Below, one piece after another: positions 14,877 to 55,363 of a DNA stretch of 64,000 nucleotides (position 1 is its first letter; the number at the start of each line of letters is the position of its first letter). The stretch is from an uncultured Clostridia bacterium (lineage in GTDB: Bacteria; Bacillota; Clostridia; Christensenellales; CAG-314): positions 64,205 through 128,204 of the forward strand of contig CAMRUG010000003.1 in NCBI GenBank assembly GCA_947053925.1. The letters run 5' to 3'. Below the pieces are notes generated by a model, which had not been told where the DNA came from, did no database searches, and saw nothing but the letters and a program-made list of their open reading frames with translations. The translations under genes and the position numbers were made by a program.

Positions 14877-16664
14877 TCAGTCAACGTTCATTATTTGAGT
14901 TTCAACATTTGTAACAACGCCAGTAAAATCAATCCTATATTCATGCGACCACGAAAATCTATAAGACGAATCGCTTATATTAAATGATTGCTCTACATAA
15001 TTATTAATATAACGCACATCTACAGGGTCCAATTCAAGTATCGCATCAATATTTACCCTTTCGCCTGTATCCAATTTTACAATAAATGTTACTTGTATCT
15101 TTTCTATTTTATTGTCATGATTTTCATCAAAATATACGATATTTACTGAAGAATCATTGATCAATGCCGCATTGTTATGATTGGGATATATATCTCGTAA
15201 TTGAAAAGCAAAAGCATCATATACCTTATTGTAATTATCTTCTAAAATTCGATTGCCATGTCGCGTGTTATATGAATTCAAAAATTCGTCAAATGTCATT
15301 TCGTTTTGAAATTCGTCCGTTTTGCGTAGTCCGCAATTCTTACAATACAGTAACATACATTCGTTGTGGTTATTATAATAAAAATAATTATGGTATGGAG
15401 GAATTATTAGCGGTCCAAAGCGTTGTTCAGCAATATAATTAGGACACCATTCATCTTCATATTCACTCATTATACCTGAATACCACCGGTGCGTTATTTT
15501 ACAACCATCGCAATCTTTGCAATACCAATATCCTGCATTTCCTTCCTCTGTACAACTTATTTTCGGTTGCATGTATACTGCATTGCTATGCGGACATGCT
15601 TCAATAACATAATCAGGCAATGACATTTCTACCCTAGCGAAAGCGACACCCGAAAAACATATAATTGGAATAATATATAAAACTGCAAATACCATGCCGG
15701 AAATTGACATCTTTTTACCGCGATCGTCGAATTTGACTCGCCTCTTGAAACCTATGATATCAAATGACAAAAACGATATTACGCTACATGGTACCAAAAT
15801 ACCTATTGCGAACATAAAATACAACCCTTGCAATGTTTCCGGATAGTGAATGAAACAAAAATACACGCTCATTCCCAACGCGCCCAATCCTCCAAAGACC
15901 GAGCATACAAAACCTGCTATCGCCCATTTGTTTTTGGGAGGTTTAGGTTTTTTAATACCTTTTTCCTCGTCAGTCATTTCTGACACGGGAGGAAGCGTTT
16001 CGGCGTCTTCTACAAAGGTATGAGATATTGTCCACTTTTTGCTTTTTACAATCAGCCAAAAAGAATAAATACCAAGCGTTACAACGGTCAGCAAAGTCCA
16101 CAATATACGTTTGCCGAAGTACTGCATACCCGTACCGTCAAAGTACATTGTATGCCCGTCTATTGTTTTGTGTTTTGCATACCAACGTTCCTTGTAGCAA
16201 TGCGCCCAATAGAAGCCAATGGTCAGAGTAATGACCGTTACTAAATTTGCTACGAAATTGATACCGAACAGTTGATACCACTTGCCGTCAAAGTGAGATT
16301 GATTGTTTTCCTCGTCTGCCTCTACTCCCTCAAAATGGATATGCTTTGTTTGCCACTCTATTATCAGCAACCTGCCCTTTATCAAAAAATAGATACCTAA
16401 CGTTATTATGCTCAACAATACCCACTTGATATAATTGCCGAACAGTTGACGCGCTTTGCCGTCAAATACTAAACGTCTGCCGTTAATGTATGTATGCGAG
16501 GCTTCCCAACGCATACGCCAGCACACCATTGCGGGATATGCCAACCCTAAAGTAATAAACGTAACGAACCCCGACAACAACCCTCTGAAAAAGTTAGCAA
16601 ACGCACCGCCCGTAAACGTAGATTGGTCGGGCGTGAGGTTTTCGACTTTTTTGTTTTTTGCCAT
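14877..16664 (-). CDS. polytopic membrane protein with an N-terminal DUF898/YjgN-like region and a Cys-rich C-terminal domain
   Basis: Two YjgN-like repeats (FTGGAFANFFRGLL...GLAYPAMVCWRMRW...GRRLVFDG and ...GHTMYFDGTG.QYFGK). More TM segments follow, then a soluble tail with CxxC-type pairs (CKDCDGC, CKNCG). Confidence 0.55.
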   Translation of the reverse strand: MAKNKKVENLTPDQSTFTGGAFANFFRGLLSGFVTFITLGLAYPAMVCWRMRWEASHTYINGRRLVFDGKARQLFGNYIKWVLLSIITLGIYFLIKGRLLIIEWQTKHIHFEGVEADEENNQSHFDGKWYQLFGINFVANLVTVITLTIGFYWAHCYKERWYAKHKTIDGHTMYFDGTGMQYFGKRILWTLLTVVTLGIYSFWLIVKSKKWTISHTFVEDAETLPPVSEMTDEEKGIKKPKPPKNKWAIAGFVCSVFGGLGALGMSVYFCFIHYPETLQGLYFMFAIGILVPCSVISFLSFDIIGFKRRVKFDDRGKKMSISGMVFAVLYIIPIICFSGVAFARVEMSLPDYVIEACPHSNAVYMQPKISCTEEGNAGYWYCKDCDGCKITHRWYSGIMSEYEDEWCPNYIAEQRFGPLIIPPYHNYFYYNNHNECMLLYCKNCGLRKTDEFQNEMTFDEFLNSYNTRHGNRILEDNYNKVYDAFAFQLRDIYPNHNNAALINDSSVNIVYFDENHDNKIEKIQVTFIVKLDTGERVNIDAILELDPVDVRYINNYVEQSFNISDSSYRFSWSHEYRIDFTGVVTNVETQIMNVD

Positions 16665-16696
16665 AGTTTTTCCCTCCTATGTAGTAATGTAACACA

Positions 16697-16727
16697 AGTA
16701 TACCCCCCCCCGATTAGAAAAAGTCAA
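16697..16727 (-). promoter_or_regulatory. sigmaA-like promoter with a G9 tract in the -35/-10 spacer
   Basis: The minus strand reads TTGACT-t-tttctaatc-GGGGGGGGG-TATACT, a 19-nt spacer. A GGAGG RBS and the ATG at 16664 lie downstream. Confidence 0.55.
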
Positions 16728-16807
16728 GTCATTTTTTTGAATTGCCGCAACGCAAAAAATAACAGCCTCCGCAAAACTGCAGAGACTGCTAAAATATTAT
16801 TTAAATA

Positions 16808-17350
16808 TTACTTTTTAAAATAACGGTTATACAATCCTTCAAAGGCTTTTCCGTGGCGGGCTTCGTCTCGAGCCATTTCGTGAACGGTATCGTGGATAGC
16901 GTCCAATCCTGCTGCCTTTGCGCGCTTTGCAAGGTCAGTTTTGCCCATCGTTGCGCCGTTTTCCGCTTCGATACGCATAGCAAGGTTTTTAGCGGTGCTG
17001 TCGGTTACAACTTCGCCCAACAGTTCGGCAAATTTAGCGGCGTGTTCGGCTTCTTCGTAAGCAGCCTTTTCCCAATAGAGTCCGATTTCGGGATAACCTT
17101 CGCGGAAAGCAACGCGAGCCATAGCAAGGTACATACCAACTTCGCTGCATTCGCCGTTAAAGTTAGCGCGAAGATCATCGATTATATCTTGAGAAACGCC
17201 TTGAGCAACGCCTACAACGTGTTCCGCCGCCCAACTGAGTTCGCCTGCTTGCGCAACAAACTTTTCCTTAGGGGCTTTGCATTGGGGACATCTTTCGGGG
17301 GCTTCCGTTCCTTCGTGAACGTATCCGCATACAGAACATACAAATTTCAT
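16808..17350 (-). CDS. rbr: reverse rubrerythrin (N-terminal rubredoxin-like domain + ferritin-like di-iron domain)
   Basis: [31 protein letters not shown] is followed by a four-helix di-iron domain with ExxH pairs ([19 protein letters not shown]). Start at ATG 17350 with an AGGAGA RBS. Confidence 0.85.
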
Positions 17351-17505
17351 TTTTAAAATTCTCCTATTTATTTTTTGCGGCATATAAATGCCTATTTAAT
17401 ACTTTATTTTACAGAAAATATATCCGCAGTAAATCAAATCTGCCTATAAAATACTTTTTATCATATTGGGGCAAATTAAAACAATGCGTTACATTACAAT
17501 GCGGC

Positions 17506-17619
17506 TTATTCTTCTTCAAGCGTAAAATCTTCTGCGCCTACTCCGCACAACGGGCAGATTTCGGGCGCTTCTTCGCCTTCGTGAACATATCCGCATACAT
17601 TACAAATCCATCTTTTCAT
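17506..17619 (-). CDS. 37-aa rubredoxin-like mini-protein (below the ORF-track cutoff)
   Basis: My translation is [37 protein letters not shown], with two CxxC knuckles as in rubredoxin. An AGGAGA RBS lies 7 nt upstream. It sits 12 nt downstream of the Fur-family gene. Confidence 0.6.
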   Translation of the reverse strand: MKRWICNVCGYVHEGEEAPEICPLCGVGAEDFTLEEE

Positions 17620-17631
17620 TTGATTTCTCCT

Positions 17632-18015
17632 TTATTGTTTATTTTGACTTGCGTCTTTATTATTACGACATTCGTCGCAACAGCCGTAAAAAGTTATCTC
17701 GTAACGGTCAACGCCTGCAATACTATGTTTAACGTCAACTTGAGACATATCGATATCTACGATTTTACCGCAGCAACTGCAAACTAAATGCGCGTGGTCG
17801 GAGACGTTTGCGTCGTATCTCTCCGCATATCCTTCCGCGCTTAACTTTTTTATTTTGCCGATACTAAGCAATTCTTGTAAATTGCGGTAAACCGTTGCTA
17901 TGCTTATGTTGGGAATAATCTCGCGCGTTCGGGCGTATATCCACGCAACGTCGGGGTGCGATGTGGTTTGACACAGCACATTGTACACCGCTTCGCGCTG
18001 TTTAGAAAATCTCAT
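17632..18015 (-). CDS. Fur-family transcriptional regulator (PerR-like by context)
   Basis: Winged-helix N-terminus (ATVYRNLQEL), HAHLVCSCCGKI and CCDECR metal sites. It is linked to rubredoxin-like and rubrerythrin genes. Confidence 0.85.
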   Translation of the reverse strand: MRFSKQREAVYNVLCQTTSHPDVAWIYARTREIIPNISIATVYRNLQELLSIGKIKKLSAEGYAERYDANVSDHAHLVCSCCGKIVDIDMSQVDVKHSIAGVDRYEITFYGCCDECRNNKDASQNKQ

Positions 18016-33310: not shown

Positions 33311-34927
33311 TTACTTGTCTTCCTGTACATCGCTATCGCTTTGACGGTTAGACGCAAGCGAAGAATCATCGGCAACACTGCCTATAATTACGCTTTCGCA
33401 AACAAGTACCGGCTTTTCTTTTTTACGTTGGATAATTTTTATAACGAATACCGAGCCCACAAACAGCAATATTGCCGTTGCAAGCGAAATTACAGCACAC
33501 CACGCAATGCCGAGATTTGCCGAAGCGCCTGCAACCAAATATGACAAAAAAGTTATTCCTGCTATCAATCCTGCATAAGGCATTTGCGTTTTAACGTGAT
33601 TAACGTGATTACAGTTTGCTCCCGTTGACGACAATATAGTAGTATCGGATATAGGCGAAATATGGTCTCCGAATACTGCTCCGCCAAGCGTTGCAGATAC
33701 GGTTACAAGAGTTATTGCATTTACGTCTGTGCCTAGGATTGTAGTAGCGATAGGTATAAGCACGGTAAACGTACCCCACGATGTACCTGTAGCGAACGCT
33801 ATACCGCACGCAAGCAAAAAGAATACGGCAGGGAAAAACGCACCGAGAGATACTCCCGTCAAAGTGTTTTGCACAAATCCGCGCGCATCGAGATAACCGC
33901 CCTTAGAGCCCATAATAGCCGAAAGCGTCCACGCAAACGTTAAAATCAGTATTGCCGAAGCCATTGTTTTAAAGCCCTCGGCAACGCTGGACATAATATC
34001 TTTAAACGAAACGGCGCGAGCGATAAGATAGTAGACAACAACAATAACCAAAGCGATTGTAGAGCCTATTGCAAGACTCATACCTGCATCACAATTTGCA
34101 AATGCTTCGACAATGTTAGCGCCTTTAAAAATACCGCCTGTGTACAGCATACCAAAAATACAGCAAACTATAAGTACCGCAACGGGAATAATAAGATTGC
34201 GAACTTTGCCGTTTGACGACGGTATTATTACCGTTTCCTGTCCGTCAAAATGTTTACCTGCGTCAACGTCGCCCGTTTGCTCTGCAATTTTATCATCTTT
34301 ACGCATTTTTCCGAAAGAAATACCTAACGCGCAAAAAACAAAAACCATTACGATTGTTAGTAAAGCGTAGATATTAAACGGTATCGTTAAAACGAAAATG
34401 GTCATATCGTTGCCTTGCAATTGTCCCATAACTGCCGCCGCCCAAGATGAAATCGGCGCAATTATGCATACGGGCGCGGCGGTACTGTCTATTATCCAAG
34501 CAAGTTTGGAGTGAGAAACCTTGAACTTATCCGTTACGGGTCTCATAACCGAACCGACTGTAAGACAATTGAAATAGTCGTCTACAAAGACCAAACAACC
34601 CAGCAACGCCGTTGCGCACAAAGCACCGCGTTGTGATTTGATTTTGCGCTGTGCCCACGCGCCGTATGCCGCTGCTCCGCCCGACTTTTGCATCAGAATA
34701 ACGAATATTCCCAAGACAACTAAAAACACTAAAATTGACGCATTTTCGCCCAATTTTTCACTCATTACCGTAAACATTGTTTCTAGAGCGTACAGAGGAT
34801 TGCCGCTTGCGTAAAACATAGCTCCAACAAAAATTCCTGCAAATAACGACAAATACACTTGCCTTGTTACAAGTGCCAAAACTATTGCCACAATTGCAGG
34901 TACAAATGCCCAAAATGTTCCTATCAT
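33311..34927 (-). CDS. NhaC-family Na+/H+ antiporter-type transporter (putative lysine transporter by riboswitch context)
   Basis: Polytopic membrane protein with an NhaC-like N-terminus, MIGTFWAFVPAIVAIVLALVTRQVYLSLFAGIFVG. Start set at ATG 34927 (GGAAGG RBS); the track start 34954 lies inside the leader terminator U-tract. Confidence 0.8.
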   Translation of the reverse strand: MIGTFWAFVPAIVAIVLALVTRQVYLSLFAGIFVGAMFYASGNPLYALETMFTVMSEKLGENASILVFLVVLGIFVILMQKSGGAAAYGAWAQRKIKSQRGALCATALLGCLVFVDDYFNCLTVGSVMRPVTDKFKVSHSKLAWIIDSTAAPVCIIAPISSWAAAVMGQLQGNDMTIFVLTIPFNIYALLTIVMVFVFCALGISFGKMRKDDKIAEQTGDVDAGKHFDGQETVIIPSSNGKVRNLIIPVAVLIVCCIFGMLYTGGIFKGANIVEAFANCDAGMSLAIGSTIALVIVVVYYLIARAVSFKDIMSSVAEGFKTMASAILILTFAWTLSAIMGSKGGYLDARGFVQNTLTGVSLGAFFPAVFFLLACGIAFATGTSWGTFTVLIPIATTILGTDVNAITLVTVSATLGGAVFGDHISPISDTTILSSTGANCNHVNHVKTQMPYAGLIAGITFLSYLVAGASANLGIAWCAVISLATAILLFVGSVFVIKIIQRKKEKPVLVCESVIIGSVADDSSLASNRQSDSDVQEDK

Positions 34928-34955
34928 TTTAACCGCCTTCCAACAAAAACTCAAT

Positions 34956-38884: not shown

Positions 38885-40107
38885 ATTTAAAATCTATATG
38901 GAATTACAGCATTCTCAAACACAACGGCAGCTGCACAGCCTGCACCCAAGTTTTAGACCTATATGAAATTACACCATTCTCAAACCCTTTCCATTGCGCA
39001 GTAAAATCGTCTAATGTTTTAGACCTATATGAAATTACACCATTCTCAAACTGCTGTACTTGTCGATGAGCAGTTCTCCGCGTTTTAGACCTATATGAAA
39101 TTACACCATTCTCAAACGCTTATTGACAGAAAGCGCACAAAGATATTGTTTTAGACCTATATGAAATTACACCATTCTCAAACGGAAGAATAGGCAATAT
39201 TCGGTATCCGGCAGTTTTAGACCTATATGAAATTACACCATTCTCAAACACTACTGATACCAGGATAAAACAGTCTTGCGTTTTAGACCTATATGAAATT
39301 ACACCATTCTCAAACTATCAACAAACACAAGCCTATAAATAATACGTTTTAGACCTATATGAAATTACACCATTCTCAAACAAGATTAGTACCAGGATTA
39401 ATGTTATCTTTGTTTTAGACCTATATGAAATTACACCATTCTCAAACCTTTGAATAACTTGTCCGTTGTATGTCAGTGTTTTAGACCTATATGAAATTAC
39501 ACCATTCTCAAACCTTGTTTGTCTTGATTTGCGAAGAATTCTAGTTTTAGACCTATATGAAATTACACCATTCTCAAACAGTTCATTTGGCGGTTGATGT
39601 CGTTTTGTTGTTTTAGACCTATATGAAATTACACCATTCTCAAACTTGCGTTTGCGGAGTATGGCTTTGCGTTTAGTTTTAGACCTATATGAAATTACAC
39701 CATTCTCAAACTTGATGAATGCGGTGGATATGCCGAAAATTGTTTTAGACCTATATGAAATTACACCATTCTCAAACGAGTGGGTATTGGTAAACCCCGA
39801 TATTGTGGTTTTAGACCTATATGAAATTACACCATTCTCAAACCCGCGCCCTGTCTTCTTTGCTTGGCGGTAAGTTTTAGACCTATATGAAATTACACCA
39901 TTCTCAAACTCGCCAGTATATCTTACGCCTTTTAATTTCGTTTTAGACCTATATGAAATTACACCATTCTCAAACCATAGGTTTGAATTTGGGCGAAAAA
40001 TTGAAGTTTTAGACCTATATGAAATTACACCATTCTCAAACACGAGAGCCGATTATATCCACACAACAGGCGTTTTAGACCTATATGAAATTACACCATT
40101 CTCAAAC
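38885..40107 (-). CRISPR. main type II-A CRISPR array (19 repeats, 18 spacers)
   Basis: 18 identical 36-nt repeats (plus strand gttttagacctatatgaaattacaccattctcaaac; transcribed sense GTTTGAGAATGGTGTAATTTCATATAGGTCTAAAAC), first at 40072-40107 and last at 38950-38985. There are 17 spacers of 30 nt and one of 29 nt. The terminal repeat at 38885-38920 is degenerate (6 mismatches, mostly at its 3' end in the transcribed sense). Confidence 0.97.
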
Positions 40108-40215: not shown

Positions 40216-40902
40216 TTAGTCGGTTTGCATAACAGGCAAATACTCGCACCTGTCTTCGTCATAAACGATTATTGCTTCGTCTTTGATTTTTGTTTTGAAA
40301 CTGCTGTCAATACACAAAATACTTATGCCGTTTATCTGACAATGCTTAAACAGCAACGACAATTGCTCGCTGTTTAAATAGCTTCTTAGACTTATACAAA
40401 CGATAACTTTTATTGACGTAAGGCGTGAAAGCAACGAAACGTAATCGCACAACTTTTCAAACAAATTATCGTATTCCTCTAAAAATGCTACGCTTATTGC
40501 TTTTAATAATATTGTAATATCAGCATCGCGTACTGTTAACGGATAATCGATATCTAATGTCAAATCGTTAAAATACATTGTTAACGACGTCAATAGTTCG
40601 TTAGTTGCAACGATATGATTTTCGTCAAATGCTAATTTTTTTAAGTTATCCTGTAATATTGCGGTCGCTTTTTTATCGTTTAAGTTCATATTGTGATAAT
40701 CAGCCAAATATACCGCATATTTGGCAAAATCAATATCCTGGCCTCCGCTTATAAGTCTCCACTTGCCCTGCTGCCCTTTGACTTGCATACACATATCGCC
40801 TGTAAAAGAAGCAAACATTGCCGAATGTTCGCAAATCAATGACCATGCGTTGCTAATATCAAAGTCTATTTCGTTTTCTAAATCGTAGTTTATTAACTTC
40901 AT
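40216..40902 (-). CDS. csn2: Csn2 (type II-A adaptation protein)
   Basis: 228-aa ORF immediately after cas2 and before the leader. Its size and position match short Csn2, and its layout resembles S. pyogenes Csn2 by eye. Confidence 0.8.
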   Translation of the reverse strand: MKLINYDLENEIDFDISNAWSLICEHSAMFASFTGDMCMQVKGQQGKWRLISGGQDIDFAKYAVYLADYHNMNLNDKKATAILQDNLKKLAFDENHIVATNELLTSLTMYFNDLTLDIDYPLTVRDADITILLKAISVAFLEEYDNLFEKLCDYVSLLSRLTSIKVIVCISLRSYLNSEQLSLLFKHCQINGISILCIDSSFKTKIKDEAIIVYDEDRCEYLPVMQTD

Positions 40903-41219
40903 ACCAATATGTATTTGTCTACAGAATCTATTACCTGACTTTTATTTTCACCAACCAAATATACGATATCTGCAAATTGTTTTTCGGTAATTACCATAAT
41001 CTGCACCGTTCCCTTTGCAGGTACTTGGTTTGCCAAATGCCGTTTAACTAGTTCTACCGTAGAACCGTTAAGCGCCAATTTAAAATAAACTGACTTTTGC
41101 ATCATTATAAAACCTTCTTTTATCAAAAAGGTTCTAAATTGCCTATATGCGGTTCTATCAGCCGCCGTTTCCGTAGGCAAATCGAAAAATACAATTATTC
41201 TCATAAATCTAAAACTCAT
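40899..41219 (-). CDS. cas2: Cas2
   Basis: MSFRFMRIIVFFDLPTETAADRTAYRQFRTFLIKEGFIMMQKSVYFKL closely parallels S. pyogenes Cas2 (MSYRYMRMILMFDMPT...). I chose the start at 41219 rather than the track start 41240. Confidence 0.9.
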   Translation of the reverse strand: MSFRFMRIIVFFDLPTETAADRTAYRQFRTFLIKEGFIMMQKSVYFKLALNGSTVELVKRHLANQVPAKGTVQIMVITEKQFADIVYLVGENKSQVIDSVDKYILV

Positions 41220-42084
41220 AACCGCAAAATTGCAACGCATTTACATCGCCGTTTTCTATTGCATAAATAACACGTTTAACATACAACCCTATGGCATTGT
41301 TTAAAGAATACTTCTTATTATCAAATAGTACTTCCTTGTTTATCAACTGCTGTAAAATATGCTTGTGCTCTTTATTAAAACTTTTAACATCCATTTGCAA
41401 AACCGTTCTGTCTACAAACGGACGAAAAGGCTCCATAAGGTCGCAACTCAAATTGAAGTGATTGTATTCGTTGTTGTGATTTATTCCGAAATTTGCAGAA
41501 TAGCCGTTAACTGCAACTTCGCGGTTAAATGCCGATAACAGTATACTGTAACCGTAATCTAACGCGGCATTGGTATCTGTTGCTATTTGCCTTGTAAAAT
41601 CGTTACCGAAAACAGCATTAAAGTAAACTTTCGCCGCGTGTCCTTCTCTGTTGGTAATGTCGCCTTGACGGACATCCGCCATATAATTAAACAACATATC
41701 TGCTTGAGTTTGATGACCGTACTTTTTAAGTACTAACATTTGCTGATAAATTTTATGCCGAACAATTTCCGTCCATATAATTTGTTTATTATATTCTGCC
41801 CAAGCAATCTGCTTTCGCAAACAGCCGCTGGTATCGTAACGTAACGAAGTGGGAACAAGTTCAAAAAACGGATTGTGCTTTTCATCGCAAAATATAACTT
41901 TAATTTTACGACGCGTAAGTTCACACAATAAACTGGCCGTAACCGCTACGGCAACACTTTCTACTATCAACACAGATATTTCCGAAAGATGAATTTTGAC
42001 AGTTTCTTCTCCGCGGCAAACCAAATAATCCAAACGGTGTTCAAGCTTGCATCTGTTTGTTACCGTTACCACGCGCCAACTCAA
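41209..42084 (-). CDS. cas1: Cas1 (type II)
   Basis: 291 aa with the type II Cas1 layout. It overlaps the cas9 stop by 4 nt, and cas2 follows. Confidence 0.93.
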   Translation of the reverse strand: MSWRVVTVTNRCKLEHRLDYLVCRGEETVKIHLSEISVLIVESVAVAVTASLLCELTRRKIKVIFCDEKHNPFFELVPTSLRYDTSGCLRKQIAWAEYNKQIIWTEIVRHKIYQQMLVLKKYGHQTQADMLFNYMADVRQGDITNREGHAAKVYFNAVFGNDFTRQIATDTNAALDYGYSILLSAFNREVAVNGYSANFGINHNNEYNHFNLSCDLMEPFRPFVDRTVLQMDVKSFNKEHKHILQQLINKEVLFDNKKYSLNNAIGLYVKRVIYAIENGDVNALQFCGYEF

Positions 42085-45000
42085 CTGTTATTCTCCTTGT
42101 CAAATTGACTCAGCGGTATTTTTTGTTCAAATATGCCTGTTACGGACCTGTGAACGATACTGATATCGTCCAATGATTCAAATACTGAAGAAGTCAATAT
42201 ATTTCCGCAAGACTTTCCTTCTTCTACCAACGATAAATTACTAGTTGTAGCATTGCACTGCAACGCTTTAGCTATCTCTGCTAGCACAACACACTGTTTT
42301 GCACGACATAAATTGGCAAATTTTTGTCTCAAATTTTCAGTCGACAATTTATGTACAAACGATTGAAGACTTGCCGCACCGCTATATTTGGAAGATGACA
42401 GTTTTTCCATAAATACGTCATATAAGATTTTATTCTGTTCCAACGTAATATCGTCATAATCAGTAACGTTATATGTTTGTTTTTGTACGCTTGCTTTATT
42501 GTATTTTTCTACAACGTTTACCACTTTTTTCAGATACCGTTCGGTTTCTTCATCACAGGCATTTTGCTGCGCAATGCGCCAAATAATTCTGTTACCCGTC
42601 ATTGCAGAAAGAGACAATAATGTATTTCCGAACTCAAACATTGTTTGAACCTTTATTCTAGGTATAAGAATTCTAGCATTTTGTAGCCCGCATTTTTCGC
42701 AATAATCAATTCGGCTTTTGTTATCCAATAATTTGTTCGAATCTTTTGCAGTTACGCCCAACAATTTATAGTAACATTTTTCATTTTGTTCCTTTTTAGT
42801 CTGCTTAACTTGGGTATACTTGACCAGCATATAGTACGCACGTGTTTCGCTGATATAACCGCCGTACTTTGCTGTATCGGACATACATTTGTATTTGCGG
42901 TTTGTGCTGTTCTCTCCCTTTAAAGGAACTAAATTAGCATTGTCGGCGTTTTTCTTTTGCAGTGTGGCTTCGAATAACTGTCCTTTTACCACTTTGCTTT
43001 CGCGAGTGAACAGCACTGCATTACTGCGCATTGTTTTTTCGACTTGCGCCATTGTTCCGTCTTCTCCGGCAATCCATGCTACTACAGATTTATTTTTGAC
43101 ATCGTGTTCAAACAGTTTTGCCGGCGAAACGAGTTTCTCTGTAGGATGGTTTTTCATCCAAAATCTTGCGTTATGCTCATAGCGGACATTATAAACGTTA
43201 CCAACCACTATGTTCAAATAAGCGTCCTTTGCGTGATGCAAGTCGTTAAGCTCACGGCACTTTACAAAACGGGATACGCGCTGTTCTCCCATTTGTTTCG
43301 GCATAGCACGGAAGTCGCTGATATTACCTGCTTTTGACCACACAATTTCGCTCTCGGGAAATACACCTTTAAGTAATTCTATTACTTCCTTAGTTGTTTG
43401 ACGCGTTTCGACAAGTTGCCTGTTAATAAAATCGGCAAGTTCATCATCGGTTAACGGTGTGTTACGGGTTAAACGTCTGTATTTCTCCTCACTCATCAAA
43501 CCTTGCTTCTTCAAGACTAGCCATTTGCTCTCCATTTTTTTGCGTACGCTTTCTTCAATGGGATATGTATCCGTTTTAACTGCATTGTGTGTGCGGTATG
43601 TTAACACAAGATTACTATGAATACTGTCGTCTTTTACTTTACTGCGGGGATATATGTGGTCTTTGTCATACAAATGCAAATTATTGTAATCAATAACATC
43701 TCCCGTATAAATATCAATGCCATTTTGCATAAAGTATAAAAACAACTTGGTATTTTGAAGACTTTCCGGCTTGAGTTCACAAAATTGTTTATAAACATTT
43801 TCGTTGAACATATCATCGCGTTGCTCTTTTAGTTTGTCCAGAGCAGCAGACAACATTTGGTAACGCGACGCATTACGTTTGCGTTCTTCTGACTTATCTT
43901 TTTTGCTATTTGTATCGCGTGCAACTTCTACAAATATTTTAGACGGCGCGCGTCCTAGTATATCGGTCAATTCCTTTACTATACATAGAGTCTGCCATAT
44001 TTGCTTTTTAACGGCAGGAGAACAGTATAATGAGTCGACAACATCATACGAAATCCCGCTAGATATATTATCACGAAGTTGATTGAATCCGTCTTTAAAA
44101 CCGTATACTTCGTTATTCCATATTTCCATAAAGTTATACTGACTGTTCCGCATAGCATCTATTATCGACAAAGTATGCAATTCTCCCGTATCGGGATCTG
44201 TTCCGATACGTTTTGTAAGCATTTCTTTAGAATAACGTCCCCAACCTTTAAGAGACAAGCCCTTGATTATACTGATTTGCTGCTCGGTTAAATAGTCAAA
44301 TTCCTTTTTTAAACGCTTTACTAGATTGTTTTTTTTCGGACCAGCTATGGTAGCATATAGAATTATTTTTTCAATATCTTCTCTGTGTTCTTCAACTCCC
44401 CTTACAGAGCCGTCAAATATTTTGACAAACTGATAGTAGGTACGTCGATGAACAGTTGCACCATCGTCAAAACCATCTATTTCAATTTTGTCATTATCTT
44501 CATATACGTTCTGTAATTTTAACCACTGTTTTAAAATTTTTGCAGTAAGTTTGCTTTCTCCATTTGTAGCATAATACTCCGACAATTTCAATTTTAAATC
44601 GACGCTTAAACGCGTGCCGTTTATTCTGATACAGTTAACAACATTGAGAAAAGCAAATTCCTCGTATAAAAGACTACATTTAGGCAAAACCTTTGCGCCG
44701 TCTACATACGGACATTTATTTGTCATACGCTGAACGAAATTATTCTCTGTGGCAAATAAATCAATTTTTTGTTCGTAATTCCAAGGAAGAATTTTGCCGC
44801 TTTCAGAACGTACTATCCAGTATTTGCCGCTATGATTATTTGTAGGACCAACATAATACGGCATTTTAAACGTCAAAAGCGATTTAATTTTGTCGTACGT
44901 TCTAATACCGCTTTTATCAGTTTCATTGATAAAAGCATAACGCGGATATTGGATAATGTTTTTTAAAATCGTTTCCAACTCTGCCAAATTAAGTTGATAC

Positions 45001-46286
45001 GGCAAAGTGGAATTACGTTTACTAACCTGCTTTGGCATAAACGTACCGTCAGCCATATCCGACAAAATACGTTGCACAGTTTCGTCGTTTTGTGCTTGCT
45101 CATACGAAGTTAATATTGATTTGACGTATTTTACGAAATCTTCATAGCTACGACTTTTAGCTGTTTCCAACAACTGCTTATTGCCGTCAACCTTCTTGCC
45201 GAAATTAACTTTACCGCTATAAGCAGTATAGTTAGTTTCTTTGTCGTTCTTTTTAAACATTAAGTCGTAAGTTTCTTGAGGAAAATACTTTTTTAGCACT
45301 CTTTTTAAATCCGCAAGATCTTTACTATGTTTTTTGTACCTTTCTACCATTCCTTCCGACAAAAAACTATAATTGCCCAAAATTGTTTTTAATTGTGCAT
45401 AATCATAAAGTAATTTAGCGTTTTCGATAAGTATATAGTCATCTTGCAACAACTCTCGATATTCCGATTCTTTTGCTTCCCATTCGCAATCGAAAGTAAC
45501 CGACAGCGAAGTTTCAGTGTCGGGAAACAATGCTTTGATCTTAACGGAATTACCCGCTATCAGTTTTAACACTGCTTCTAATCGGCTGTTTTTAGGTGCA
45601 TCAAAACAATCCTTATAACGCTGTGCGCGTTCGGATTTAGTACCTTTTTCGACTAAACAATTTTGGAATTTTTTAATTATTTCCTTGGTCAAATTTAATT
45701 GCTCAACTTTTTCACTACTTGACAAATAACAGGCAATTGAATTCAAAGGCGCCTCAATATTATCAATAACGCTTACGCTATCGCCTTCTTGCAAAAAGTG
45801 CCCGCGGTATTTGATAATATGATGCAACGCCAGATATACCAATCTCGGATCAGGATCGGTCTCGGTCATCATTGCCAACCGTAAATGGTAAATCGTTTTG
45901 TATTTTTTGTAAAATTCTTTATCGGTATAGTCTTTATCGTTAAACAACGAAAACTTAGTCTTTTCACGTTTGTCGCCGTCATATAAATTGCTGTCTGAAA
46001 GACGTGCGAAAAAATTGCCGTCAATTTGATTGATAACGGGCGCAAAAATTTCTTGCAGCAATTCTATACGCCATTTGCGTCGTTCTAATCTTCTGCGAGA
46101 TTCTCGGCTCAAACGTCTGTTACTTGCAGATTGAGCCGAATCAAACAAACGTACGCCCCACAAATTTTTATTATTTGCGCGTAAAAGTTTATAATTAGTA
46201 TCGGTAACCGCCCAGCCGACTGAATCGGTGCCTATATCCAAGCCCAAATAATAATTTTCGTAATTTCTTTTGTTTTTTTGACTCAT
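42081..46286 (-). CDS. cas9: Cas9 (type II-A, 1401 aa)
   Basis: RuvC-I YYLGLDIGTDSVGWAV; an arginine-rich bridge helix (NRRLSRESRRRLERRKWR); HNH YDKDHIYPRSKVKDDSIHSNLVLTYRTHNAVK. The operon continues with cas1-cas2-csn2. Confidence 0.97.
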   Translation of the reverse strand: MSQKNKRNYENYYLGLDIGTDSVGWAVTDTNYKLLRANNKNLWGVRLFDSAQSASNRRLSRESRRRLERRKWRIELLQEIFAPVINQIDGNFFARLSDSNLYDGDKREKTKFSLFNDKDYTDKEFYKKYKTIYHLRLAMMTETDPDPRLVYLALHHIIKYRGHFLQEGDSVSVIDNIEAPLNSIACYLSSSEKVEQLNLTKEIIKKFQNCLVEKGTKSERAQRYKDCFDAPKNSRLEAVLKLIAGNSVKIKALFPDTETSLSVTFDCEWEAKESEYRELLQDDYILIENAKLLYDYAQLKTILGNYSFLSEGMVERYKKHSKDLADLKRVLKKYFPQETYDLMFKKNDKETNYTAYSGKVNFGKKVDGNKQLLETAKSRSYEDFVKYVKSILTSYEQAQNDETVQRILSDMADGTFMPKQVSKRNSTLPYQLNLAELETILKNIIQYPRYAFINETDKSGIRTYDKIKSLLTFKMPYYVGPTNNHSGKYWIVRSESGKILPWNYEQKIDLFATENNFVQRMTNKCPYVDGAKVLPKCSLLYEEFAFLNVVNCIRINGTRLSVDLKLKLSEYYATNGESKLTAKILKQWLKLQNVYEDNDKIEIDGFDDGATVHRRTYYQFVKIFDGSVRGVEEHREDIEKIILYATIAGPKKNNLVKRLKKEFDYLTEQQISIIKGLSLKGWGRYSKEMLTKRIGTDPDTGELHTLSIIDAMRNSQYNFMEIWNNEVYGFKDGFNQLRDNISSGISYDVVDSLYCSPAVKKQIWQTLCIVKELTDILGRAPSKIFVEVARDTNSKKDKSEERKRNASRYQMLSAALDKLKEQRDDMFNENVYKQFCELKPESLQNTKLFLYFMQNGIDIYTGDVIDYNNLHLYDKDHIYPRSKVKDDSIHSNLVLTYRTHNAVKTDTYPIEESVRKKMESKWLVLKKQGLMSEEKYRRLTRNTPLTDDELADFINRQLVETRQTTKEVIELLKGVFPESEIVWSKAGNISDFRAMPKQMGEQRVSRFVKCRELNDLHHAKDAYLNIVVGNVYNVRYEHNARFWMKNHPTEKLVSPAKLFEHDVKNKSVVAWIAGEDGTMAQVEKTMRSNAVLFTRESKVVKGQLFEATLQKKNADNANLVPLKGENSTNRKYKCMSDTAKYGGYISETRAYYMLVKYTQVKQTKKEQNEKCYYKLLGVTAKDSNKLLDNKSRIDYCEKCGLQNARILIPRIKVQTMFEFGNTLLSLSAMTGNRIIWRIAQQNACDEETERYLKKVVNVVEKYNKASVQKQTYNVTDYDDITLEQNKILYDVFMEKLSSSKYSGAASLQSFVHKLSTENLRQKFANLCRAKQCVVLAEIAKALQCNATTSNLSLVEEGKSCGNILTSSVFESLDDISIVHRSVTGIFEQKIPLSQFDKENNS

Positions 46287-48506: not shown

Positions 48507-48833
48507 AATTTTAATACCCGCTACTTTTTTAGGAATAACCTGTCCCCAAAAACCCATTTGATTTTTACAATTACCTTACCCGCATTGTTAAGTTTAGCAT
48601 AATGATTTGTAAACTTTTTTGCGGATTTGAAACATTGACTTTACAAATAAATTTATCATAATTACATTTATATTTCAAGCGTATTAAACATTTGGTGCAA
48701 AATTTAGACTATAATAATTAAATAAAATATGTTTATTATTTTAGACACTATATTTAACTAAATAAATATTCTATATTTTAAGTGTAAGACGTTTACAAAC
48801 AATGTAAACTGTGTTAAAATATGTACACATTTG

Positions 48834-48909
48834 GACGATTAACTCAGCTGGGAGAGTGTCTCCTTGACGTGGAGGAAGTCACAGGTTCGAGTCCTGTATC
48901 GTCCACCAC
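48834..48909 (+). tRNA. tRNA-Val (GAC)
   Basis: It folds by hand into a 76-nt cloverleaf: GGACGAT/ATCGTCC acceptor, ACTC/GAGT D-stem, anticodon loop TTGACGT, T-arm ACAGG-TTCGAGT-CCTGT and an encoded CCA. Confidence 0.9.
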
Positions 48910-50560: not shown

Positions 50561-50758
50561 ATGACTTTTTCGGAAAAAGTGAAAGCCGTTCGCAATCAAT
50601 TACAATTAACGCAGGAAGAACTCGCCCACAAATTAGGCGTTAGTTTTGCAACGGTTAATCGTTGGGAAAGCGGTTCGTATAAACCGAGCAAAATGGGACA
50701 AAGAATGTTTGAAGAATTTGTAGAAAAGAACAATTTAAATCAGGAGAATAACGAATGA
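50561..50758 (+). CDS. XRE-family helix-turn-helix protein
   Basis: VRNQLQLTQEELAHKLGVSFATVNRWESGSYKPS. Confidence 0.75.
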   Translation: MTFSEKVKAVRNQLQLTQEELAHKLGVSFATVNRWESGSYKPSKMGQRMFEEFVEKNNLNQENNE

Positions 50759-51564
50759 AAAAGTCAATCAACGTACAAGGTTACCCTATCGGAATAAAGG
50801 GTATCGAAAAAGAAAATTATATTTCTTTAACGGATATTGCACGCTTTAAAAATCCGGAAGCGCCTGCCGACGTGGTTAAAAATTGGATGCGTACACGCGC
50901 AACGATAGACTTTCTCGGTCTATGGGAAGAGCTCAATAATCCAAATGTTAACGTGGTCGAAATCGACCAGTTTAAAAATCAAGCGGGGGCAAATGCTTTT
51001 ACGATGTCTCCAAAAAAATGGATTGAAGCGACAAATGCAATCGGTATCTATTCTTCTTCCGGCAAATACGGCGGCGGAACTTTTGCACATCAAGATATAG
51101 CGTTTGAGTTTGCAAGTTGGGTTTCGGCTGAATTTAAGTTGTATCTAATCAAAGAATTCCAGCGGCTTAAAATCAACGAACAAAAAGAACTTGAATGGAA
51201 CAGCAAGCGCGAACTATCAAAAGTTAACTACCATATCCATACCGATGCAATTAAAAGTAATTTAGTCGTTCCGACTTTGAACGATTGGCAAGTCAGTTTC
51301 GTATATGCGTCAGAAGCGGATATACTTAACACTGCTCTATTCGGTAAAACAGCGGCAGATTGGCGAAAAGAAAATCCCGATAAAAAGGGAAACATACGCG
51401 ACTATGCAACCATGGAACAATTGCTTGTAATAGCAAATATGGAAAGTTATAACGCTATTTTAATCGCACAGGGATTACCGCAATCCGAACGATTGAAACT
51501 ATTAAACGCAATGGCTGACAGCCAAATGCAAGTATTGCTGAATAGTCCTAAAAGATTGAAATAA
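50755..51564 (+). CDS. KilA-N domain DNA-binding protein
   Basis: ISLTDIARFKNPEAPADVVKNWMRTRATIDFLGLWEELNNP ... FAHQDIAFEFASWVSAEFKLYLIKEF is typical of KilA-N proteins found next to R-M genes. It overlaps the XRE gene by 4 nt. Confidence 0.6.
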   Translation: MKKSINVQGYPIGIKGIEKENYISLTDIARFKNPEAPADVVKNWMRTRATIDFLGLWEELNNPNVNVVEIDQFKNQAGANAFTMSPKKWIEATNAIGIYSSSGKYGGGTFAHQDIAFEFASWVSAEFKLYLIKEFQRLKINEQKELEWNSKRELSKVNYHIHTDAIKSNLVVPTLNDWQVSFVYASEADILNTALFGKTAADWRKENPDKKGNIRDYATMEQLLVIANMESYNAILIAQGLPQSERLKLLNAMADSQMQVLLNSPKRLK

Positions 51565-51689: not shown

Positions 51690-54600
51690 ATGATTAACAA
51701 AAGTAACTTTAAAGAATTGATTATAAAACTTGGCTTTACGGATAACGGCACATTATTTGTAAAAGAATTCGCGCAATTTTCTTGTTCGATGTCCGTCGAC
51801 TTTGTAAATGAAAAATTAATCTATCCTACTTTTATCGTCGGCAGAGAGCGCAACGATTCTTTTAGCCAAGACGAAAATTTCGTTGTGTTTGAATGTGTAA
51901 ACCGACTTTTAGAAAAAGGTTATCGTCCCGAACATATCGAACTCGAAAAGGTTTGGACTTTGGGACATATTCAAAAAAGCGGGCGTGCCGATATTTGCGT
52001 TTATAATAAAGATAAGTCCGCTATGCTTTTCATCATAGAATGTAAATCTGCAGGTAGAGAGTATAATAAAGCCTTAAAAAACACTTTAAATGACGGCGCA
52101 CAGTTATTTTCCTATTGGCAACAAGAACAATCGACTAAATGGCTTTGCCTTTATCAGTCTGATTATGTGAATAATGAAGTTTGTTACAAAGCGACTACAA
52201 TCAATTGCTCTGACGATAAAAATATAGAAGATTTAGCGAAGAAAGATAAAACCATAAAACTTTATTCTTCCGCCTTTACTGCACCGGAAAAATATTTAGT
52301 ATGGAAAGAAACTTATAATCTTCAAATTCTTGATAATATCATATTTGCAGAAGATACGGTTGCATACGAAATCGGAATAAGGCCTTTACGTAAAAAAGAT
52401 TTAAAAGACTTTTCGCCGGAAGATAAAATAGTAAACCGTTTTGAAGAAATATTGCGCCACAATAACGTAAGCGATAAAGAAAATGCCTTTAATCGGTTAA
52501 TAGCGTTGTTTATTTGTAAACTCGTCGATGAAATAGAAAAATCCGATACAGACGAAGTAGAATTTCAATATAAACTCGGCACAGACACATATGAAAGTCT
52601 GCAAGACAGATTGCAAAGACTTCATAAACAAGGTATGGACGAGTTTATGAAAGAAAAGATTTTCTATGTAGAAAACGATTACGCCGAAAAATTGTTTTTG
52701 CAATACACCGGTTCTAAAAGAAAACAAGCGATAGAAGATTTAAGTAAAACAATAAGAATTTTAAAATTCTATACAAATAACGATTTTGCTTTTAAAGATG
52801 TACATAACGAAGAACTTTTCTTCCAAAACGGTAAAATCTTAGTCGAAGTCGTTCAACTTTTTGAAAATTACAGAATTGTCTATCCTGCAAAACATCAATT
52901 TTTGGGGGATTTGTTCGAACAGTTATTAAATAAAGGTTTTAAGCAAAACGAAGGGCAATTTTTTACTCCTACTCCCATAACCCGTTTTATATGGGATAGT
53001 TTGCCTATTGAAAAAATAATTAAGAACAAAGACAAATACAATTTACCGAGAGTTATCGACTATGCTTGCGGCGCTGGGCATTTCTTAACCGAAGGCGTTG
53101 AAGCAATCAATAGTTATTTTGAACATATCGGTAATGCGGCATTAGTGCAAAATAATGCGTGGGTTGAAACCAATATTTATGGGATAGAGAAGGACTACCG
53201 TTTGGCTCGTGTGTCAAAAGTTTCAATGTTTATGAACGGTGCGGGCGGAGCAAATATTGTTTTTGGGGACGGACTTGAAAACTATCCCGAAAAACAGATT
53301 GAAGCAAATTCGTTTGATATTTTGGTTGCTAATCCGCCGTATTCCGTTGAAGCTTTTAAGCCACATTTAAAATTAAAAAATAATTCTTTTGAATTGTTAA
53401 AAATTATATCTAATAACGGATCGGAAATAGAAACGCTATTTGTTGAACGAATTGCTCAACTTGTAAAGCCAAAAGGTATCGCCGCCGTATTGTTACCTTC
53501 TCCGATACTCTCAAATACTTCATCAAGTTACATTGTAGCACGAGAACAGTTTTTAAAACATTTTCTTATTCGCGCAATTGTCAGTTTAGGTTCGAAAACT
53601 TTTGGGGCAACCGGTACAAATACGGTAATTATGTTTTTGGAAAAACGTGATGAACCGCCCATACAAGAGAAGTTAGTTGAAGATAGTGCTAATGCAATCC
53701 TTTCTAATCTTAATTTAACGGATTGGATTGATAGCGAAATCAAATTACAATATTTATCTCAAATCGGCGTTGCTGATGACGAATACGCTGTATTGATTGA
53801 CGAAAATCAAGATATAAATTTATTGCAAGAATCCGATTATTTTAAAGGATATTTTACCGAATATAACAAAACTAAAAGAAAACAAACGGTAAGAGCGTTT
53901 ATAAAAGAACGGGAATTTAATAAACTCAAATATTTTGCTTTGGTTTGCAAACAAGAAACTTTAATAATCACAGCTCCTGCCGATAATATAAAACAAAAAG
54001 AATTTTTAGGATATGATTGGAGTAATCGCAAGGGTGCCGAAGGAATCGTTATCAATAAATTCGGCGGAATGATGTTTGATGAACAGAACCGATATGCAGA
54101 GAACACATTAGCGTTTCTTATCAAACAATCATTTTTTAACAATAAGTTATCATTGCTAGATAAAGAACATTATTATGCGTATTACGAATTAAAAAATTTA
54201 ATAGATTTTAGTAGATTAGAATTTCATAAAGCGATTAAGATTGTTAATGACAAAAAATTAACAATCAGTAGCAAATACAATTTATTACCGTTGGGACAAA
54301 TCTGCGATGTTCGTATAGGTGGTACTCCTTCTAGAAAAAATATGCAATACTTTACAGGAACTAACTTATGGGTTACCATTGCAGAAATGAATGGTCAAGT
54401 GATTAACGATACTAAAGAGAAAATTACTGAACAAGCAATAAAAAATTCTAACGTAAAACTTATTCCGAAAGGTACAACTCTGTTAAGTTTTAAGTTGAGT
54501 ATTGGGAAAACGGCAATAGCAGGTGTTGATTTATACACAAATGAAGCAATAGCCGCACTTATACCGCTTACAAAAAATTTATTGAATGCGTATTTATTCC

Positions 54601-54857
54601 ATTTATTTCACAGTGGTTTAATAGATTTAACGAATGTTGGAAACAAAGCATTTGGTAAAAGTTTAAATAGCACATATTTAAAAGAAGAAGTAAAAATCCC
54701 AGTACCCCCGCTTGATATTCAAGAAAAGATAATTGCGGAATGTCAAAAAGTTGATGAAGAATATAACTCTACACGCATGACTATCGAAGAATATCGTAGA
54801 AAGATTGAGAAACTATTTCGCGAACTCGACGTAATTTCTGGGGGGGGTATGAGTTAA
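51690..54857 (+). CDS. fused restriction endonuclease - N6-adenine methyltransferase - specificity (TRD1) protein, type IIB/IIG-like; frame ends just after a G8 tract
   Basis: N-terminal PD-(D/E)xK candidate (GRADICVY ... FIIECKS); methylase motif I DYACGAGHFL and motif IV LVANPPYS. The C-terminal HsdS-like TRD is LPLGQICDVRIGGTPSRKN...NEAIAALIP, followed by a conserved helix. Confidence 0.85.
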   Translation: MINKSNFKELIIKLGFTDNGTLFVKEFAQFSCSMSVDFVNEKLIYPTFIVGRERNDSFSQDENFVVFECVNRLLEKGYRPEHIELEKVWTLGHIQKSGRADICVYNKDKSAMLFIIECKSAGREYNKALKNTLNDGAQLFSYWQQEQSTKWLCLYQSDYVNNEVCYKATTINCSDDKNIEDLAKKDKTIKLYSSAFTAPEKYLVWKETYNLQILDNIIFAEDTVAYEIGIRPLRKKDLKDFSPEDKIVNRFEEILRHNNVSDKENAFNRLIALFICKLVDEIEKSDTDEVEFQYKLGTDTYESLQDRLQRLHKQGMDEFMKEKIFYVENDYAEKLFLQYTGSKRKQAIEDLSKTIRILKFYTNNDFAFKDVHNEELFFQNGKILVEVVQLFENYRIVYPAKHQFLGDLFEQLLNKGFKQNEGQFFTPTPITRFIWDSLPIEKIIKNKDKYNLPRVIDYACGAGHFLTEGVEAINSYFEHIGNAALVQNNAWVETNIYGIEKDYRLARVSKVSMFMNGAGGANIVFGDGLENYPEKQIEANSFDILVANPPYSVEAFKPHLKLKNNSFELLKIISNNGSEIETLFVERIAQLVKPKGIAAVLLPSPILSNTSSSYIVAREQFLKHFLIRAIVSLGSKTFGATGTNTVIMFLEKRDEPPIQEKLVEDSANAILSNLNLTDWIDSEIKLQYLSQIGVADDEYAVLIDENQDINLLQESDYFKGYFTEYNKTKRKQTVRAFIKEREFNKLKYFALVCKQETLIITAPADNIKQKEFLGYDWSNRKGAEGIVINKFGGMMFDEQNRYAENTLAFLIKQSFFNNKLSLLDKEHYYAYYELKNLIDFSRLEFHKAIKIVNDKKLTISSKYNLLPLGQICDVRIGGTPSRKNMQYFTGTNLWVTIAEMNGQVINDTKEKITEQAIKNSNVKLIPKGTTLLSFKLSIGKTAIAGVDLYTNEAIAALIPLTKNLLNAYLFHLFHSGLIDLTNVGNKAFGKSLNSTYLKEEVKIPVPPLDIQEKIIAECQKVDEEYNSTRMTIEEYRRKIEKLFRELDVISGGGMS

Positions 54858-54883: not shown

Positions 54884-55363
54884 TTGTTTATCGGAAAGCG
54901 CGTATTAAATAGCGAACTTGTCGAAACAGGATTGCCCGTATTTAGTGCTAATACTTATGAGCCTTTCGGGTATATAAACTCGGATATAGTTAAAGACTTC
55001 TCTACACCTTCGGTTATTTGGGGAATTGACGGGGATTGGATGACGAATACTCTCCCTTCAAATTATGCGTTTTATCCAACGGACCATTGCGGTGTAATTC
55101 GTTTGAAAAAAAGCAATGTAATTGAATACAAATATTTGGCTTGGTTGCTTTTGCAAGAAGGTAAAAAGGCGCGGTTTTCAAGGTCGTATCGGGCTTCAAT
55201 TGATAGGGTAAGTCAAATAAAATTAGCCGTTCCTCCATATGAAAAACAAAAAGAATTTGTTGCTCAAGTTGATGTTTTAGAACAACAAATAGCAGAATTG
55301 GAATCAAAGCTGGGTGCAATAGATAAAGAAAAACAAGACATTATTTCTAAATATTTAAACTGA
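54884..55363 (+). CDS. HsdS-like target recognition domain 2 plus conserved helix (probably the displaced C-terminus of the upstream R-M protein)
   Basis: FIGKRVLNSELVETGLPVFSAN ... TDHCGVIRLK ... KYLAWLLL, then coiled-coil QVDVLEQQIAELESKL. This frame is open from 54809 through the G8 tract (54840-54847). The track start is a TTG, and I saw no RBS upstream of it. Confidence 0.7.
   Translation: MFIGKRVLNSELVETGLPVFSANTYEPFGYINSDIVKDFSTPSVIWGIDGDWMTNTLPSNYAFYPTDHCGVIRLKKSNVIEYKYLAWLLLQEGKKARFSRSYRASIDRVSQIKLAVPPYEKQKEFVAQVDVLEQQIAELESKLGAIDKEKQDIISKYLN

Follow-up and report, generated by a model that had tools for sequence, protein, structure and literature searches.

A nine-G tract in the spacer of a predicted promoter as a candidate length switch for a DUF898 membrane protein gene of an uncultured mouse-gut Clostridia bacterium

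Our analysis points to a homopolymeric tract of nine Gs (G9), lying between the -35 and -10 hexamers of a predicted promoter, as a switch, or rheostat, that would act on the downstream DUF898 membrane protein gene through promoter spacing, in the manner described for the porA and opc genes; we put the probability of this reading at roughly 0.6. According to the mechanism that we propose, the tract would be a hypermutable simple-sequence repeat in the spacer of a sigma-A-type promoter (TTGACT / TATACT), where slipped-strand mispairing at replication would lead to the gain or loss of single Gs. Each such change in length would move the -35 and the -10 closer together or further apart and also rotate them relative to each other, and promoter strength would be altered heritably but reversibly. 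We infer that TTGACT / TATACT is the promoter in use and that transcription follows tract length, with G9 and G10 (spacers of 19–20 nt) corresponding to low or off states and shorter tracts (G8, G7) to more expression, the benefit perhaps being the variable display of a surface-exposed protein that differs between strains.

Promoter architecture and spacing

The elements of the predicted promoter and its surroundings are listed below; positions here and throughout are those of the window, by which we mean the whole 64,000-nt stretch of DNA that was analysed.

16722–16727, minus strand: -35 hexamer TTGACT, matching TTGACA at five of six positions
16703–16721, minus strand: promoter spacer of 19 nt, made up of ttttctaatc (10 nt) and G9
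16703–16711, minus strand: poly-G tract G9 (C9 on the plus strand), directly abutting the -10
16697–16702, minus strand: -10 hexamer TATACT, matching TATAAT at five of six positions, without a TG extension
16673–16677, minus strand: ribosome-binding site GGAGG, 8 nt 5' of the ATG at 16664
14877–16664, minus strand: gene that the promoter would control, 595 aa, Pfam DUF898
16760–16791, minus strand: terminator-like hairpin followed by a T run, at the end of the rubrerythrin gene
16808–17383, minus strand: rubrerythrin gene, the upstream context

This layout agrees with the first-pass annotation of the region in the order of TTGACT, G9-containing spacer and TATACT on the minus strand, in the -35/-10 spacing of 19 nt at G9 (10 nt plus the tract), and in the gap of 8 nt between GGAGG and the ATG; the distance between TATACT and GGAGG, which had been given as 23 nt, is in fact 19 nt. 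In G10 alleles the spacer is 20 nt long. The hexamer pair sits on the sense strand of a 143-nt intergenic region, 3' of the terminator-like hairpin and at a normal distance from the ribosome-binding site, a placement that speaks for it, and this hairpin would insulate the DUF898 promoter from the upstream rubrerythrin gene. TATACT is also the -10 of three of the poly-G promoters described further below (L110, L120 and L127).

Our search of the spacer for inverted repeats found none, and an Rfam scan of the intergenic region returned nothing at the gathering score, the best match there being PyrR with 36 bits (54 are needed), located on the terminator hairpin. We also considered two alternative -35 boxes, GACTTT and ACTTTT, which would be 17 nt from the -10 with G9 or G10; they match the consensus at only 0–1 of six positions and were rejected by eye. 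Directly 5' of the -35, at 16733–16759, there is a 13-nt imperfect palindrome (TTTTTTGAATTGC / GCAACGCAAAAAA), which was rejected as an operator because it is not kept in a diverged strain (samples X34, X36 and X37).

G/C homopolymers of this kind are scarce in the window, which has a G+C content of 38.4% and for which an order-0 model predicts 0.04 G/C runs of nine or longer. The earlier statement that the G9 tract and a G8 tract in a restriction-modification (R-M) gene are the only G/C runs of at least eight in the 64 kb turned out to be too cautious, as they are the only ones of at least six: there are no runs of six or seven, only the C9/G9 and the G8 at 54840–54847.

To see how the 19-nt spacing compares with that of other promoter-like sequences, we scanned the whole window for TTGACA/TATAAT pairs with at least 10 of 12 matches and spacers of 14–21 nt, and compared the counts with those in block shuffles. 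A spacer of 17 nt was found in 33 pairs, compared with 12.8 in the shuffles, and was the sole enriched spacing; a spacer of 19 nt was found in 8 pairs, compared with 12.5, and all spacings other than 17 were at or under chance. Promoters of the window organism use a strict 17-nt spacer, and, with enrichment confined to this length, spacing should matter in this organism. At the same time, since 19-nt pairs are not enriched, a hexamer pair matching at 10 of 12 positions and 19 nt apart is not significant alone, and the case for the DUF898 promoter must therefore rest on its position together with comparative evidence. It had been proposed that the loss of two Gs would bring the spacer to an optimal 17 nt. 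That optimum is the only enriched length, but the G7 allele that would reach it has never been seen, nor has G8, and the natural alleles have spacers of 19–20 nt, so that the natural states are predicted to be weak or off.

Natural variation in tract length

The locus is present in mouse-gut and other metagenomes. We compared the tract in about 24 other assemblies, all with identical flanks, and found G9 in about 19 and G10 in 4–5 of them, which is the safe count considering that the assemblies may include re-deposits (this applies to X2 and X3, and X4 possibly comes from the sample of L004). The alleles are as follows.

G10: JGI contig Ga0137307_101473 (L004)
G10: Logan run X4
G10: SRR27143645 (L008)
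G10: SRR20718666 (L009)
G10: ENA ERZ27241776 (L196)
G9: the window itself; L005; L007; L195
G9: X1, X2, X3, X5, X6, X7, X8, X9
G9: X15, X16, X17, X19, X34, X36, X37, X40

The length variation that had been suspected from the window alone is thus seen in nature, and both lengths occur on one haplotype: the one marked by GGAGGGG and a 558-aa product carries G9 in L007 and G10 in L008 and L009. G10 occurs on the GGAGGGA background too, and the two observations together indicate that the change in length is recurrent, having arisen on more than one occasion. Neither G7 nor G8 turned up in the approximately 24 assemblies, which represent at least three haplotypes.

Assembly coverage was low (3–20x), and sample X47 served as a control for the calling of tract lengths. 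It contains two near-identical promoters of Pumilibacter muris that assemble as G9 and G10, matching exactly the lengths in the 356x isolate assembly, which suggests that assemblers call the length of such tracts reliably. The diverged strain found in X34, X36 and X37 shows 7 differences in the 26 nt just 5' of the -35, compared with a single substitution in the 31-nt core from the -35 to the -10, G9 included, where the length is unchanged (Fisher p = 0.018); the -35 TTGACT itself is identical in this strain. We consider it very probable that the window tract is hypermutable in nature.

The DUF898 protein and its host

The downstream gene had been described as encoding a 595-aa DUF898-type membrane protein, and Pfam supports this with scores above cut-off: DUF898 (PF05987, YjgN family) matches in two stretches with 65.2 bits (cut-off 28), and DUF6693 matches with 34.3 bits (cut-off 31), overlapping the DUF898 match. 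We found 317 homologues, most of them annotated as DUF898. The protein consists of a DUF898 membrane module (aa 1–225), a Lys/Pro linker, three further transmembrane segments and an acidic, Cys-rich C-terminal domain (aa 350–595) with 9 Cys; hydropathy predicts seven hydrophobic or transmembrane segments overall. With K/R counts of 9, 0 and 7 for the final loops, the C-terminal domain is placed on the outside in this prediction, and the domain is probably extracytoplasmic. Surface exposure is plausible, judging from the positive-inside rule and from a Cys motif shared with a lipoprotein, while a role as phage receptor or antigen, as raised in the first-pass annotation, is speculation. The first Cys motif resembles the module right after the lipobox of that lipoprotein (L162), and the only full-length relative of the protein, P0003, keeps six Cys. 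Neither a word-based homologue search nor Pfam gave anything for the C-terminal domain, and an AlphaFold model built from a 2-sequence alignment had a pLDDT of 45 and was unusable.

The open reading frame is intact in all alleles. Strain alleles of 595, 558 and 555 aa are about 97% identical over aa 1–225 and have unrelated C-terminal halves; the C-terminal portion of approximately 330–370 aa (14877–15990 of the window, minus strand) is swapped in other strains (L007–L009, L195 and L196). On these comparisons, the gene combines a mutable promoter with a C-terminal allelic cassette.

As for the host, its Tex protein is 88% identical to that of Clostridiales MAGs and 83% identical to that of Ca. 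Fimimonas, and its DUF898 relatives belong to Christensenellales; searches of the GTDB representatives with peptide words and with the exact promoter pattern did not recover the same species. RNA contigs X24–X28 extend over the rubrerythrin gene of a related strain and nothing else of the region. In metatranscriptomes X24–X26 the sequence of this strain departs from that of the window right after the rubrerythrin stop, at 16807, which means that the DUF898 gene is not at that place there.

Poly-G spacers at DUF898 homologues

A profile of the N-terminal DUF898 module retrieved 33 homologue loci from species-representative genomes (65 kb in total), all from Christensenellales-type Clostridia (Borkfalkia, Coproplasma, 'Christensenella' MAGs and Pumilibacter muris). 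Only four G/C runs of at least seven were present in these 65 kb. All four were G9–10 and all were found on the sense strand, within the -35/-10 spacer just 5' of the DUF898 homologue:

L102: TTGACG-cggta-G10-tgtgc-TACAAT, spacer 20 nt
L107: TTGACA-aattact-G9-TATTAT, spacer 16 nt
L110 (P. muris, cultured): TTGACT-tc-G9-tatgg-TATACT, spacer 16 nt
L120: TTGACT-tc-G9-atgc-TATACT, spacer 15 nt

Among the Tex loci of related genomes, 187 kb altogether, there was no G/C run of seven or longer. The chance of four tracts all landing in those spacers is p ~7e-10, and that of finding a tract in at least four of 33 upstream regions at the background rate of the window is ~4e-6. The tract-bearing genes are scattered over the tree of N-terminal domains, the nearest relative of L107 (L112, 78% aa identity) has a plain TTGACA-17-TATAAT promoter, and the position of the tract inside the spacer varies among lineages, all of which argues for repeated acquisition and for selection for a mutable spacer. 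Length variation is seen here as well: one study provides seven samples of the P. muris-type orthologue (P0078), six with G9 and one (L203) with G10, the flanks being identical; at G10 its spacer is 17 nt long. L102, like the window promoter, would need G7 to reach 17 nt.

Some of the homologues without a tract have a perfect palindrome in the -35/-10 spacer (L091, L092, L105 at about 570–620, and L010 at about 2420–2470; examples are CCTACAAATTGTAGG, TACCATTTTGGTA and TACCCAAAATGGGTA). These palindromes look like repressor operators, which suggests that the DUF898 family is generally under tight control. Separately, the DUF898 orthologue at L120/L167 (CAMUKG010000009.1, 284–850) reads as only 188 aa, with breaks in the frame relative to P. 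muris; this may indicate a pseudogene or a fault in the assembly.

Similar promoters in front of other genes

We searched a genome collection with CTTGACTTC followed by G8, a pattern that presupposes the -35 and the tract, and obtained 15 loci in low-GC gut Christensenellales, 25%-GC 'Bacilli' MAGs and a Gracilibacteria MAG, along with chance matches in high-GC genomes. At each of these 15 loci there is a -10 downstream of a tract of G8–G13, often extended by TGn, and behind it a gene for a lipoprotein, a BspA-type LRR protein, an SLH protein or another membrane-anchored protein. The promoters below belong to this type, with LRR_5 and SLH genes among those behind them.

TTGACTTC-G8-13-(TGn)-10 promoters: L142, L145, L148/L173, L150/L169, L153
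TTGACTTC-G8-13-(TGn)-10 promoters: L162, L175, L183, L184, L191

L145 has two tandem tracts, G8 and G9, and in two MAGs there are paired loci one G apart (L148/L173 and L150/L169). Most of these promoters reach 17 nt with G9–G12 and lie within one step of it, in contrast to the window promoter, which is two to three steps away. In P. muris, a promoter core of about 45 nt, TTGACT-tc-Gn-tatgg-TATACT, is present in two copies on contig NZ_CALPCN010000005.1:

L182, 7595–7660, minus strand: copy before the DUF898 homologue (the promoter listed above as L110), G9
L127, 6596–6660, minus strand: copy before a BspA-type LRR lipoprotein gene, 17-nt spacer at G10

The tract of the L127 copy is G10 in the isolate and in X47, and G9 in X50. 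It is possible, at what we would judge slightly below even odds, that TTGAC(T)-(tc)-G8-13-(TGn)-10 elements are switches making up a widespread system of phase variation, so far undescribed, in uncultured gut Christensenellales, low-GC 'Bacilli' MAGs and Gracilibacteria, controlling DUF898 proteins, BspA-type LRR lipoproteins and SLH proteins, with the module copied between loci of the same genome, as at the two P. muris loci and the paired loci of the two MAGs. The window locus would then be one member of this system.

The R-M tract and other features of the window

The second long G run of the window lies within a coding sequence.

54840–54847, plus strand: G8 tract close to the end of a fused R-M-S gene of 1055 aa, within ORF 51690–54857

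The R-M-S gene has HSDR_N, N6_Mtase, Eco57I and Methylase_S domains. At G8 its frame stops 10 nt after the tract, while at G9 (or G6) it would read into a second Methylase_S specificity domain to give a product of 1224 aa, the adjoining ORF being 54884–55363. Judging by this layout, the tract is of the classic phase-variable, frame-shifting kind seen in Type IIG/Type I-like systems, and its presence in the same genome speaks for a switch at the DUF898 gene as well. Four metagenomes with the DUF898 locus lack the R-M locus, which is thus strain-specific, and the R-M-S protein is not on record. Flanking the gene are a KilA-N domain gene (50755–51564, plus strand) and a gene with HTH and IrrE/M78 peptidase domains (55580–56737, plus strand), and a tRNA-Val is located nearby (48833–48908), which suggests that the R-M gene is on a mobile or prophage-like island.

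Other features of the window are these:

38950–40107: CRISPR array of about 17 units, with the 36-nt repeat GTTTTAGACCTATATGAAATTACACCATTCTCAAAC and spacers of about 30 nt
40216–46286, minus strand: type II cas operon adjoining the CRISPR array
42081–46286: Cas9, 1401 aa
34997–35169, minus strand: lysine riboswitch (Rfam RF00168, 91.6 bits), 5' of ORF 33311–34954
17506–17619, minus strand: 37-aa rubredoxin-like mini-ORF (RUBY_RBDX), called in JGI and Logan contigs

The mini-ORF sits between the gene for a Fur-family protein (17632–18015) and the rubrerythrin gene.

Discussion

A promoter-spacing switch is not the only way to read these observations. The tract could be a mutational hotspot without a working switch, in which case the promoter would be locked in a weak or off state, lengths of 9–10 would drift neutrally and the gene would be silent or decaying, an outcome to which we give a small but real share of the probability. 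The presence of only G9 and G10, without G7 or G8, in about 24 assemblies and at least three haplotypes is in line with it, as is the enrichment of window promoters at exactly 17 nt only, and the apparent frameshift of the L120/L167 orthologue at 188 aa could reflect such decay. Mutational bias alone can yield a modal G9 (PMC3401435); with this documented bias around nine, drift at 9–10 without selection for expression becomes plausible, and this also fits a switch that is not used. Against neutrality, the open reading frame is intact in all alleles and strains retain about 97% identity in the N-terminal half, the promoter core has been kept while the DNA upstream of it diverged, and tracts appear to have been gained independently in four other lineages, each time at this position of the promoter, which is hard to account for without selection. 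We regard it as unlikely that another promoter is in use, with the tract serving as an upstream, binding or structural element. The extended -10-like sequence TGtTACATT (16694–16686), 5 nt 3' of TATACT, is one candidate, a spacing of 19 nt is poor, and most other poly-G promoters have a TGn extended -10 and would be less dependent on the -35. However, TACATT matches at only four of six positions, transcripts starting after it would have a leader of just some 15 nt, no Rfam element was found in the intergenic region, and in 15 further loci the tract is flanked on one side by a perfect or near-perfect TTGAC -35 and on the other by a -10, with 15–20 nt between them, an arrangement that would be pointless if the -35 was not used.

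The difference between nine and ten Gs might instead have arisen in sequencing or assembly, the tract itself being stable. Depth was only 3–20x, Illumina quality falls after G runs, and several contigs end at or just past the tract (X10, X5, X15 and L207), which would fit an artefact; yet G9 and G10 were each obtained from several assemblers and sources (JGI, ENA, Logan), X47 gives G9 and G10 at near-identical promoters just as the isolate genome does, and no other homopolymer in the 600-nt region varies among samples of the same strain, and we consider an artefact quite improbable. Spacers of 19–20 nt are typical of MerR-family targets, and the spacer has this length in all alleles, which raises the question of whether it could be functional as it is, through a regulator that twists the DNA, with the G run incidental. 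We rejected this idea and give it very little weight: the spacer has no dyad, no MerR gene is found nearby (the neighbours encode rubrerythrin, a Fur family protein, a patatin and a PP-loop ATPase), and related poly-G promoters have spacers of 15–17 nt.

For a promoter-spacing switch at the DUF898 gene, the closest precedents are porA (poly-G) and opc (poly-C) of Neisseria meningitidis, which show phase variation through the promoter spacer (van der Ende 1995 and Sarkari 1994, as cited in PMC5084427). The likeness consists in a G/C homopolymer between the -35 and the -10 whose slippage by single units changes the spacing, and in control of an envelope protein with a graded, rheostat-like rather than strictly on/off effect, as predicted for the window locus. 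The differences are that the window host is a Gram-positive-type gut anaerobe (Clostridia, Christensenellales-like), that the gene encodes a polytopic DUF898 membrane protein, and that the window spacers are 19–20 nt long as opposed to 15–17 nt. The vlp genes of Mycoplasma hyorhinis have a poly-A promoter-spacer switch. A TA-repeat switch in the promoter spacer was described for hifA/hifB of Haemophilus influenzae (van Ham 1993, likewise via PMC5084427). Repeat number in the hif and vlp systems sets the -35/-10 distance and through it the transcription of surface structures, as we propose here, whereas the repeat unit and the taxa are different from those at the window locus; moreover, hif controls two divergent genes, while the window tract would control one gene 3' of a terminator.

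Campylobacter jejuni offers a parallel for the behaviour of the tracts themselves. Its poly-G/C tracts have a modal length of 9, with an insertion bias at G8 and a deletion bias at G11 (PMC3401435), and its Type IIG R-M gene cj0031 is a poly-G/C contingency locus (PMC4889913). As in the window, the genome is low in GC and has few G/C runs besides tracts of G8–G10, with nine the modal length, and the tracts lie in surface-structure genes and in an R-M gene, both kinds being present in the window; unlike the window tract, which is in a promoter spacer, they are mostly intragenic and act by translational frame-shifting. In Bifidobacterium breve, a poly-G switch controls the pilus (PMC9187656). 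Here too the host is a gut commensal and G-tract slippage controls a surface structure, but B. breve is an actinobacterium and its tract is intragenic, working on/off by frameshift. Our literature search did not turn up any description of repeat-mediated phase variation in Pumilibacter or Christensenellales, or for DUF898 proteins. To our knowledge, what has been learned about repeat-driven phase variation comes almost entirely from pathogens (Neisseria, Haemophilus, Campylobacter and Mycoplasma), and the switches that we know of in gut commensals are mostly invertible promoters and intragenic tracts.

The same architecture is present in a cultured organism, Pumilibacter muris CLA-AA-M08, which makes direct tests feasible. 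If the proposed switch is real, many uncultured gut Clostridia would vary a family of membrane or surface proteins by slippage, and tract length would be a hidden expression state that affects how single-genome assemblies and metatranscriptomes are read. This would have a bearing on phage-host and host-immune interactions, and it would open a first way into the function of DUF898 proteins, which could then be seen as envelope proteins that are expressed conditionally and have a domain varying between strains.
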